Shown here piece after piece: positions 52,910 through 55,683 of a stretch of 64,000 bases of DNA (position 1 is the stretch's first letter; each line of letters begins with the position of its first letter). A model generated the notes under the pieces. The model saw only the letters and a list, made by a program, of their open reading frames with translations, did not search any database and had not been told where the DNA came from. The DNA is from an uncultured Chloroflexia bacterium (GTDB lineage: Bacteria; Chloroflexota; Limnocylindria; Limnocylindrales; CSP1-4), in the NCBI GenBank assembly GCA_963763775.1, contig CAVXPZ010000001.1:384001-448000 (forward strand), given 5' to 3'. The translations under genes and the position numbers were made by a program.

Positions 52910-54143
52910 CCTCGCCCGACCAGGGCCGGCCGCGACGCCACGCGACGGTCAGCGTCGACGTCGGCGGCGTCCTCGTCGGGAGCGCGCATCCCATCGTCGT
53001 CCAGTCGATGACGAATACGGACACCGCCGACGCGGACGCCACGGCGATCCAGGTCGCCCGGCTCGCGCACGCCGGCTCGCAGCTCGTCCGCGTCACGGTG
53101 AACACCGAGGAGGCCGCTGCCGCGGTCCCGGAGATGGTGCGCAAGGTCCGCGGGCTCGGCGTCGACGTGCCGATCATCGGCGACTTCCACTACAACGGGC
53201 ACAAGCTCCTGACCGAGTACCCGGACATGGCCGCGCGCGCTCGCGAAGTACCGGATCAACCCCGGCAACGTCGGCGCCAAGCGCCATGACGAGCATTTCG
53301 CGACGATCGTCAAGGTCGCCATCGACAACGACGTCCCGGTCCGGATCGGCGTCAACTGGGGCTCGCTCGACCAGGCGATCCTGACCGAGCTGATGGACGT
53401 CGAACGCCGCCTCGACGCGGCCGCGCGACGCGCGCGACGTGATGATCGACGCGATGCTCGAGTCCGCGATCCGCTCGGCCGAGCTCGCGGAGGCGACCGG
53501 CCTCCGTCACGACCGGATCATCCTCTCGGCGAAGGTCTCGGGCGTGCGCGACCTCGTCGACACGTACCGGCGCCTGGCCGGCCGCTCGGACCACCCGCTC
53601 CACCTCGGACTGACCGAAGCGGGCATGGGCGACAAGGGCGTGATCGCCTCCACGGCCGGCCTGGCCATCCTGCTCAACGAGGGCATCGGCGACACGATCC
53701 GGGTCTCGCTGACGCCCGAGCCCGGCGCGCCGCGCGAGCGCGAGGTCGAGGTGGCCCAGCAGATCCTGCAATCGATGGGTCTGCGCTCGTTCCTGCCGCA
53801 GGTCAGCGCCTGCCCGGGATGCGGACGCACGACCAGCACGTTCTTCCAGGAGATGGCGCAGCAGATCCAGGCGTATCTCAAGGAACGGATGCCCGAATGG
53901 CGCGAGACTCATCCGGGCGCAGAGGACCTGCGTGTCGCCGTCATGGGCTGCGTGGTCAACGGCCCCGGCGAATCGAAGCACGCCGACATCGGGATCTCGC
54001 TGCCCGGGACCTTCGAGGAGCCGGTGGCACCAGTCTTCATCGACGGGCGACTCGACCGGACGCTCCGCGGCGACGGGCTCGTGGCCGAGTTCATCGACAT
54101 CCTCGAGGCGTACGTGCAGCAGCGGTTCCCCAGCCCGGTCTAG
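52906..54143 (+). CDS. ispG: HMB-PP synthase (probable frameshifts near 53235 and 53420)
   Basis: [56 protein letters not shown]. Confidence 0.94.
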
Positions 54144-55321
54144 TCGACGAGGACTCGGACCGCCTTCGGCGAGCGGTATTCGTGACCGCGGAAGACCACG
54201 TCGTGGTCGGGGTCGAGCCGAAGCCGCGGGAAACGCTCCAGCAGGGCACGGATCGCGATCCGAAGCTGGACTCGCGCGAAGTGATGGCCGATGCAGTAGT
54301 GCGGCCCCGTCGCGAAGGCCAGGTGCGCGCGACGCGGCCGGCGGATGTCGAACCGGTCGGCGGTCGGCCCCCAGACCTCGCCATCGCGATTGGCGGAGGC
54401 GACCACGAGGATCGCTCGGGCATCCTCCGGCAGCGTGACGCCGCCGATCCGCGTGCCGGGCGCGACGCCGCGGAGCAGGTTCCCGATCGGTGCCGTCCAG
54501 CGCAGGCCCTCCTCGACGGCGAGCGCGATCAGGTCGGTGTCGGCGACGACGGCCGTGCGCTGAGCCTCGTCGGCCAGCAGGCACGCGGCGATGGTCGCGC
54601 CGCCATGGGCCGGTTCCTGGAGACCGCCGAGGAGCACGAGCTTGAAGGAGGGCATCGCGAAGGCGATCCGGTCCTCGAGCGGCCCGTCGGTGGCGGCGAC
54701 CAGGTGCGAGATGAGGTCGTCGGCGGGGGCGGCGAGACGTTCCGCGAACCGCGGCGCGACGGTGGCCTCGATCTCGCGGCCGATGGTGTCGCAGTGGTCG
54801 GTCTTGGCGGGGTCGTCCTCGTAGTTCGAGACGCCGTCCGCCAGCCCCGCGAACCAACGCACGAGGGTCGCGGCGTCGACGAGGTCGGCGATGCCCATGG
54901 CGTGGGCGAGGGACAGGACCGAGATCGGCTCGAAGTAGTCGGCGACGAGGTTCGCGGACCCCATGTCCGCGAGCGCGTCCAGGCGGTCGGCGCAGAGCCG
55001 CTCCAGCACGTCCGGCAGGAGCGCCTCGACGGCTCGGGGCCGGAGCGTCGGATCGAACGGCCGCCGCCGGCGTTTGGCCGGCTCCCCGTCGGTGGTCATC
55101 ATCGAGACGCCGCCCAGCGCCCGGTCGGTCGGCGAATGCGCGACGTGGGCAGGGAATGCCACGGGATCCGTGCATGCCGCCTCCACATCGGCCCACCGCG
55201 TGACCATCCAGACATCGAGGCACGGCATGTAGGCGACCGGGGCGCGCTCGCGGAGGGCCGCATAGACCGGGTACGGGTCGCGTTCCAGGTCCTCGACCGT
55301 GACGGCCGCGATGTCGATCAC
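54140..55321 (-). CDS. Cytochrome P450, GcoA/CYP255-like
   Basis: Heme motif [14 protein letters not shown] (ExxR), I-helix [14 protein letters not shown] start overlaps the Rieske stop. Confidence 0.92.
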
Positions 55322-55632
55322 GGGACGAAGACCTCGAGCACCGAGGCGGTCGTCCGGACCTCGAACGTGGCCACGGGCGTGCGAGCCGGCGGACGGCGGA
55401 CGGCGCCCGTCGCGAGGTCGAACTCCGAGCCGTGGCAGTCGCAGACCATGCGGGCGTCCTCCACGGCGCCGTCTTCGCTGAATGCGCATCCGGCGTGGCT
55501 GCAGCGGTCTTCGAGGGCGTACCACCGGTCGCCCCACGCGACGAGCACGATGGATCGCCCGCCGACCGCGACCGGGATCGGCCGCGGCTCCGCGGTCGGG
55601 AGGGCGGCGACGGCGGTCTCGAACCAGGGCAT
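55318..55632 (-). CDS. Rieske [2Fe-2S] ferredoxin
   Basis: 104 aa; CSH...[17 protein letters not shown]. Confidence 0.92.
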
Positions 55633-55683
55633 GCGGGGGTAGGGTAGCGCGGTCGGCCACGCACGATCCGGGGCCGGCCGGCT

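Follow-up and report, generated by a model that had tools for sequence, protein, structure and literature searches.

The window, by which we mean the whole 64-kb stretch analysed here (64,000 nucleotides from an uncultured Chloroflexia bacterium; assembly GCA_963763775.1, contig CAVXPZ010000001.1, positions 384,001 to 448,000 of the forward strand), carries a pair of overlapping minus-strand genes that encode a soluble Rieske [2Fe-2S] protein and a cytochrome P450. The Rieske gene (55318..55632, minus strand) specifies a protein of 104 amino acids (aa) with an isoelectric point (pI) of 4.85, and the P450 gene directly downstream of it (54140..55321, minus strand, GTG start at 55321-55319) specifies a 393-aa protein placed below in the CYP255/CYP1232 clade. 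The two reading frames share the four nucleotides GTGA (55318..55321, minus strand), in which the Rieske stop codon TGA (55320-55318) overlaps the P450 start codon GTG in a translational-coupling geometry; the two genes are translationally coupled. At the opposite end of the unit, the P450 stop codon TAG (54142-54140, minus strand) and the stop codon TAG of the convergent ispG gene (54141-54143, plus strand) share the CTAG at 54140..54143. The original prediction, made from the sequence alone, had described this two-gene unit together with both overlaps, and all three were found at these positions. Its end coordinate of 55646 had to be corrected, as it lies 14 nt too far: all 28 aligned Rieske homologues begin with M-x-W, and the ATG at 55632 is therefore most likely the start. 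Both open reading frames (ORFs) are intact and every cofactor ligand is present. Sequence comparison suggests that this conserved pair is a candidate for an unusual route by which electrons reach a P450.

Scanning one genome per species yielded 32 loci related to the pair. The Rieske gene was detected by tblastn directly upstream of the P450 gene in 30 of them, that is, in every locus where the P450 identity is at least 60%, L026 (frameshifted) and L031 (truncated) among them; it was absent upstream in L029 and L032, whose P450s have identities of 48% and 29%, respectively. The mode of coupling could be tallied in 30 sequences (29 loci and the window, L026 being unreadable in one frame), of which 23 have a 4-nt NTGA stop/start overlap, two an apparent 8-nt overlap and five a gap of at most 15 nt. 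The pairing is thus conserved in relatives, which supports the original prediction. ORF clustering of the 32 loci gave no conserved third gene, none being found in more than six loci besides the P450 (29 loci) and the Rieske gene. The P450s share a mean pairwise identity of 71%, against 47% for the Rieske proteins. Over 28 loci, pairs with more similar P450s also tend to have more similar Rieske proteins (Pearson r = 0.56 between the pairwise identities).

These observations bear on whether the two proteins work together at all. The genes might merely be co-expressed, with the Rieske protein working for a different enzyme or in a different process, Fe-S handling for instance, and not interacting with the P450. 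General-purpose Rieske ferredoxins can exist, since SpFdx4, a Rieske-type ferredoxin of Streptomyces peucetius that supports a P450, is encoded in a suf cluster and not beside that P450 gene (PMC12979805), and locus L012 encodes, 0.8 kb downstream of its P450, another Rieske-domain protein, of 579 aa. We nevertheless consider such independence very improbable, given that the pairing holds in 30 of 30 loci at a P450 identity of at least 60%, that the genes are coupled by overlap and that no other neighbour is conserved. The correlated identities point the same way, though shared ancestry alone could give such a correlation.

The P450 matched the Pfam family p450 (PF00067) with 55.8 bits, against a cut-off of 22.8. 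Its heme loop has the form F336-x-x-G-x-H-x-C343-x-G, in which F336, G339, H341, C343 and G345 are invariant in all 29 aligned P450s, as are the ExxR motif (E271-x-x-R274) and the I-helix residues Q235-E236-P237-x-H239. We based its placement on sequence and fold rankings against the Protein Data Bank (PDB). The top 18 distinct chains (E 8.7e-61 to 1.5e-50) comprise SyoA (8u09, 8.7e-61), AgcA (9ia1, 3.4e-56), CYP1232A24 (6g71, 2e-53) and fifteen GcoA variants (about 1e-51), and the nineteenth drops to 4.6e-38. The chains 8u09 and 9ia1 were identified as SyoA and AgcA through PMC11842817 and bioRxiv 10.64898/2026.02.18.706646, respectively, and 6g71 as CYP1232A24 through its Foldseek description. 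An AlphaFold2 model built from 29 sequences, with a mean predicted local distance difference test score (pLDDT) of 90.4, gave query-based TM-scores (TMq) of 0.91-0.93 to GcoA and SyoA and 0.90 to CYP1232A24, at Foldseek identities of 32% (GcoA), 35-36% (SyoA) and 32% (CYP1232A24); counting identities by hand in the alignments gave about 36% for SyoA (140/389) and about 34% for GcoA (129/385).

In P450 nomenclature, membership of a family corresponds to more than 40% identity to a named member. With identities of 32-36%, the window P450 falls below this threshold and is therefore not a CYP255 member. The GcoA sequence blocks on which the original prediction had relied (LERNPY, YCEPVSVRSL, LLGAMQEPGHG and EGLRWTSPI) all occur in the GcoA chain and align with blocks of the window protein. 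What stands of the proposed GcoA/CYP255-like P450 is accordingly its neighbourhood of GcoA, SyoA, AgcA and CYP1232 and the retained Gln-Glu pair, whereas CYP255 membership does not. By sequence and modelled fold, we place the P450 in the clade of aromatic O-demethylases formed by GcoA, AgcA, SyoA and CYP1232A24, with a predicted pocket of its own.

Comparison with the individual enzymes shows where this likeness resides. In CYP255 enzymes, a Gln-Glu (amide-acid) pair replaces the usual acid-alcohol pair of the I-helix and is needed whether O2 or H2O2 drives the reaction (PMC11842817). GcoA, the CYP255A guaiacol O-demethylase of Amycolatopsis (PDB 5ncb; TMq 0.92, E 7e-51), has Gln248-Glu249 and His252 where the window protein has Q235-E236 and H239. 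In SyoA, the CYP255A syringol O-demethylase (PDB 8u09/8u19) and the best sequence match (35-36% identity, TMq 0.91), the pair is Gln252-Glu253; SyoA differs in a 7-residue stretch of the F-G helix region that is missing from the window P450. AgcA, the CYP255A1 alkylguaiacol O-demethylase (PDB 9ia1), is the second-best sequence match. CYP1232A24 (PDB 6g71), the third-best (TMq 0.90), shares the shorter F-G region but carries Asn-Glu in the I-helix in place of Gln-Glu.

The partner protein matched the Pfam Rieske family with 61.8 bits, against a cut-off of 20.3. Its cluster ligands, C44-S-H46 and C64-D-C-H67, follow the form CxH-x17-CxxH, with 43 residues ahead of the first ligand and no membrane anchor. 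Sixteen positions are invariant in 29 sequences (M1, W3, C44, H46, A47, C49, F51, C64, C66, H67, G68, S69, E70, G76, P82 and A83), and all 29 proteins are acidic, with a pI of 4.16-5.33 and a net charge of -5 to -13. The AlphaFold2 model (pLDDT 96.3) most resembles the soluble ferredoxins that serve biphenyl, carbazole, naphthalene and toluene dioxygenases (TMq 0.82-0.88). These ferredoxins (BphA3, BphF, CarAc and those of naphthalene dioxygenase (NDO) and toluene dioxygenase (TDO)) resemble the window protein in size (about 104 aa) and in the CxH-x17-CxxH arrangement as well. The best NCBIfam matches, to the HcaC and AndAb ferredoxins (E 1e-15), remained under their cut-offs (57.0 against 113 bits and 55.4 against 150 bits), as did the score against every family of this kind, and the partner gene is here a P450 rather than an oxygenase alpha/beta pair.

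The surround of the cluster has another affinity. Respiratory-type Rieske proteins, namely those of the bc1 and b6f complexes and Kustd1480 of Kuenenia, share the signature CxHxxC ... CxCHGS with the window protein, match it in PDB sequence searches at E of about 1e-6 and, in the case of Kustd1480, have Phe at the Tyr position as it does (PMC12954380). Unlike them, the window protein is much smaller, lacks an anchor or N-terminal extension, has no cytochrome b neighbour and is nearer in fold to the soluble ferredoxins. Neighbouring genes were scanned as 120 ORFs from 29 loci, leaving out L002, L017 and L032: cytochrome b families were found neither among these neighbours nor among the window ORFs, and Rieske oxygenase alpha or beta subunits adjoin the pair in none of the 29 loci. 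Sequence and model together indicate a Rieske protein that mixes a ferredoxin fold with a respiratory-type cluster surround.

In actinobacterial class I P450 systems, the usual layout is a small ferredoxin gene beside the P450 gene and a reductase encoded elsewhere. By analogy, the layout found here, in which a small acidic Fe-S protein is coupled to a P450 and no reductase lies nearby, may be read as a class I operon in which a Rieske protein stands in for the ferredoxin; of the three components of such a system, the P450 and a candidate carrier are coupled here, and no reductase turned up within the 64 kb. The reading that we favour, with moderate confidence, is a dedicated Rieske-P450 redox pair that is served by a reductase encoded elsewhere and probably acts on a small aromatic ether. 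The pair would then form a self-contained two-gene operon, its soluble acidic Rieske protein occupying the slot normally filled by a Cys4 ferredoxin. Electrons would pass from NAD(P)H, through a reductase whose gene lies elsewhere in the genome, to the Rieske protein, which would bind the P450 at its proximal face and hand them on for O2 activation. The P450 would in turn hydroxylate a small hydrophobic aromatic, most likely at the methyl group of an aryl methyl ether, with release of formaldehyde.

Such an arrangement would set the pair apart from its closest relatives. GcoA is served by GcoB, a fused ferredoxin-FAD-NADH reductase with a putidaredoxin-like Cys4 cluster (PMC6021390), where the window P450 adjoins a stand-alone Rieske protein and no reductase. 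AgcA uses the reductase AgcB (bioRxiv 10.64898/2026.02.18.706646), and syoA lies next to the gene for its predicted partner SyoB, an FMN/NADH/2Fe-2S reductase of the phthalate dioxygenase reductase type (PMC11842817). An adjacent multi-domain flavin/[2Fe-2S] reductase as in CYP255 systems (GcoB, AgcB or SyoB) was not found among the ORFs scanned here, and the Rieske gene takes that position. Contrary to what the original prediction had implied, a Rieske-fed P450 is not wholly new, since SpFdx4 was shown in 2026 to support the P450 DoxA in vitro together with SpFdR3 (PMC12979805). SpFdx4, too, is a Cys2His2 [2Fe-2S] Rieske-type protein, but DoxA is an anthracycline-tailoring P450 of a different clade, and its gene is not linked to that of SpFdx4. 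Among the open-access and bioRxiv full texts searched, SpFdx4/DoxA was the only case found of a Rieske ferredoxin driving a P450, and no description was found of a gene-linked Rieske-P450 pair or of the present clade.

Several observations weigh against the favoured reading, and they concern the source of the electrons, the substrate and the potential of the Rieske protein. With regard to the first, no ferredoxin reductase was found among the 120 neighbour ORFs or among the 70 window ORFs, a list (48 plus 22) that comes from a crude filter on G+C content at third codon positions (GC3) and is possibly incomplete. The ferredoxin and flavodoxin reductase families had no match among the window ORFs, and FAD_binding_6, NAD_binding_1 and Fer2 proteins were found in neither set. 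The original prediction had likewise noted no reductase in the window. In addition, demethylation by SyoA proceeds by the H2O2 shunt alone, its adjacent reductase supporting none (PMC11842817), so that enzymes of this clade may be able to turn over without a redox partner.

With regard to the substrate, GcoA clamps the aryl ring between Phe75, Phe169 and Phe395 (PMC6021390; residue numbers follow the natural numbering of chain 6hqp). In the window P450, Phe75 is replaced by Leu69, Phe169 by Val164 and Ala295/Thr296 by Leu282/Leu283; Phe395 corresponds to Tyr382, which leaves one of the three positions of the triad aromatic, and Ile81 to Met75. Because two of the three Phe residues are replaced and Ala295/Thr296 have become a Leu pair, the methoxy-aromatic substrate of the original prediction is weakened to a guess, and, with the pocket reshaped relative to that of GcoA, the substrate is probably not guaiacol itself. 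Nor were aromatic-catabolic genes found beside the pair, ring-cleavage enzymes included, among the 120 neighbour ORFs of the 29 loci.

It is conceivable, then, that the same Rieske-P450 redox pair performs another chemistry, the P450 hydroxylating or coupling a different small molecule, perhaps one of these bacteria's own metabolites. The altered triad and the Leu-Leu replacement are consistent with this, as are the identities of only 32-36% to every characterised demethylase, the unusual conservation of the P450 (pairwise identities average 71% over sequences with two phylum labels) and its neighbours, which are housekeeping or variable genes and in no scanned locus an aromatic-catabolic cluster. 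We regard this as possible but less likely than the aromatic ether, since the four closest solved relatives, from CYP255 and CYP1232, all demethylate methoxy-aromatics (PMC11842817) and the Gln-Glu-Pro-x-His signature of the I-helix is kept. Furthermore, SyoA has Leu and Ile at the positions of GcoA Phe75 and Phe169, which Leu69 and Val164 resemble, so that both changes are compatible with methoxyphenol substrates.

With regard to the potential, the Rieske protein carries an extra Cys pair, C49/C66 (CxHxxC ... CxCH), followed by Ser69 and Phe71 (CHGS-E-F), in all 30 sequences, and the low-potential ferredoxins CarAc and BphF, the two compared at these positions, have neither the Cys pair nor the Ser. 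In the respiratory, high-potential Rieske proteins of bc1 and b6f complexes such a Cys pair typically forms a disulfide, as C49/C66 may do here. The Ser and Tyr positions raise the potential of a Rieske cluster through hydrogen bonding, and Kustd1480, with a Ser/Phe pair and the disulfide, has a midpoint potential (Em) of +335 mV (PMC12954380). Were the potential of the window protein as high as this, it could not pass a first electron to a ferric P450.

These residues would fit a P450 that is driven mainly by H2O2, as a peroxygenase in the manner of SyoA or as a peroxidase, with the Rieske protein as a higher-potential one-electron partner rather than a classical ferredoxin. The Rieske protein might then provide the second electron only, reduce compound I or II, or supply H2O2 by autoxidation. 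The Gln-Glu pair, on which the peroxide shunt of both SyoA and GcoA depends (PMC11842817), is invariant here, as are the respiratory-type Cys pair and the Ser, and a reductase is linked to the pair in none of the loci examined; the Em of Kustd1480, with its Ser/Phe pair, speaks for the same role (PMC12954380). Conversely, the fold and size of the protein match those of the low-potential dioxygenase ferredoxins, and the abundance of acidic residues near the cluster would be expected to lower its potential. The disulfide, for its part, influences stability more than potential, as Leggate and Hirst reportedly found in 2005, and no P450-Rieske peroxidase system of such a kind is known. On balance we think a peroxide-driven role unlikely. 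Equally unlikely, in our view, is the undescribed P450 architecture to which it would amount, that is, a Rieske protein of respiratory signature as the obligate partner of a peroxygenase-capable Gln-Glu P450 run on H2O2. Such a Rieske protein may donate electrons to, or accept them from, oxidised heme intermediates, or may give the second electron only, its potential possibly being too high for the transfer of the first. If true, the pair would be the heme-thiolate counterpart of cytochrome c and cytochrome c peroxidase. A dedicated redox pair that receives its electrons from a reductase encoded elsewhere remains the reading that we prefer.

A search of longer proteins with the Rieske query gave three matches, and we considered whether fused Rieske-P450 forms occur. 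P0124 (496 aa, Rieske and p450 domains, one metagenome contig) was rejected as a natural fusion; it is probably a frameshift artefact, because the C-terminus of its Rieske domain is lost after '...LRPP' and the sequence runs into the P450 frame. P0123 proved to be an over-extended ORF call.

The pair has been carried through many genomic contexts in metagenome-assembled genomes (MAGs) labelled Chloroflexota (Limnocylindria) and Acidimicrobiia. A flank of ispG and nusA, as in the window, accompanies it in only four of the 32 loci (L001, L002, L004 and L026), and L026 also has the 4-nt overlap of the P450 and ispG stop codons. In a maximum-likelihood (ML) tree of 29 P450s, built without L016, L026, L031 and L032 and labelled with the submitters' own taxa, the window falls in a clade of 13 rows (support 98/97), consisting of 11 Chloroflexota-labelled rows, the window itself and L004, and this clade sits beside Acidimicrobiia-labelled rows. 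Protein clusters with an identity of 71% or more to the P450 number over 120; they are named only 'cytochrome P450', some of them labelled Candidatus Limnocylindrales. L004, which is labelled Candidatus Sulfomarinibacteraceae (Acidobacteriota), shows the ispG / P450-Rieske / nusA synteny with 82-83% protein identity, and its P450 groups within the Chloroflexota-labelled clade; its contig may be mis-binned or mislabelled.

The genes that recur beside the pair look like lineage-specific synteny, and we rejected a conserved third gene or reductase partner among them. They include an adenylate/guanylate cyclase (L005, L009 and L020; the TPR-cyclase in L028 is unrelated), class-III aminotransferases, DinB/NUDIX proteins and DAO/BFD glycerol-3-phosphate-oxidase-like proteins (L010 and L023 among the loci scanned, and L017 from clustering only). 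Two loci of a related sample series, L013 (6051-8072) and L016 (6977-8998), encode an Rrf2-family regulator downstream of the P450 in the same orientation and, after it, a 540-aa copper nitrite reductase-like protein; the latter has a C-terminal cupredoxin domain and scores 288.8 bits with the NirK model, below the cut-off of 296.3. Cupredoxin-like genes lie upstream in L018 and L027. The separate 579-aa protein of L012 (8000-9739) combines an N-terminal NirD/HcaC-like Rieske domain with a remainder that has no Pfam match.

Outside the pair, the window consists of housekeeping genes. One flank carries rpsF, ssb, ileS, lspA, priA, def, fmt, plsX, nusB, rnc, smc, ftsY and ffh, followed by rimM, rplS, rpsB, pyrH, cdsA, dxr, rseP and ispG, and the other carries nusA, ylxR, infB, rbfA and ribF, so that the pair lies inside a core ispG-nusA region just as the original prediction had it. 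The composition of the pair is native to the window: its GC3 of 0.91-0.92 compares with 0.93 ± 0.03 in 22 other genes, and we therefore rejected a recent horizontal acquisition. No tRNA genes and no Rfam families (at gathering score) were found across the 64-kb window of otherwise core genes. Between the Rieske start and the divergent nusA start lie 179 nt (55633..55811), which presumably hold the promoter of the Rieske-P450 pair; no sigma-70-like site for the pair was found on the minus strand of this region. On the plus strand, a promoter-like site (TTGAGC-17-TATACT, 55684-55712) faces nusA, as does a GC-rich hairpin with a T-run (55740-55760) about 50 nt 5' of the nusA start, and together these elements (55684-55760) may form a leader attenuator of the nusA-infB operon. 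NusA itself ends in a long tail rich in Ala, Pro and Glu, in which a basic motif (PAKPKR[VT]TKKAAA-like) occurs three times (about 56900-57245, plus strand).

Several genes around the pair appear broken in the assembly. In the region 52723-54143, ispG is spread over three frames (52906-53235, 53237-53398 and 53400-54137), and rseP changes frame near 52723-52733. The pieces are 84-98% identical to the intact genes of L001 and L026, except for the long first rseP piece, at only about 60%, and the breaks are most likely single-base indel errors of assembly and not real pseudogenes. At 37317-38590 and 38760-40195, an MFS transporter is likewise split into two ORFs, and the SRP54 GTPase and SRP_SPB domains of ffh lie in different frames, which suggests an indel-prone assembly.

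Bacterial P450s in general use Cys4 or [3Fe-4S]/[4Fe-4S] ferredoxins, and the characterised members of the CYP255 clade use fused multi-domain reductases or, in the case of SyoA, H2O2. A dedicated and co-inherited Rieske partner, if true, would therefore be an added natural redox-partner type for P450s and would provide a ready-made, matched pair for the biocatalytic O-demethylation of lignin-derived aromatics. Because of its mixed signature, the Rieske protein also lends itself to studying how the potentials of Rieske clusters are set. Since the pair is abundant in MAGs of uncultured Limnocylindria and Acidimicrobiia, its function would bear on the use of aromatic compounds or other small molecules by widespread soil and freshwater bacteria.

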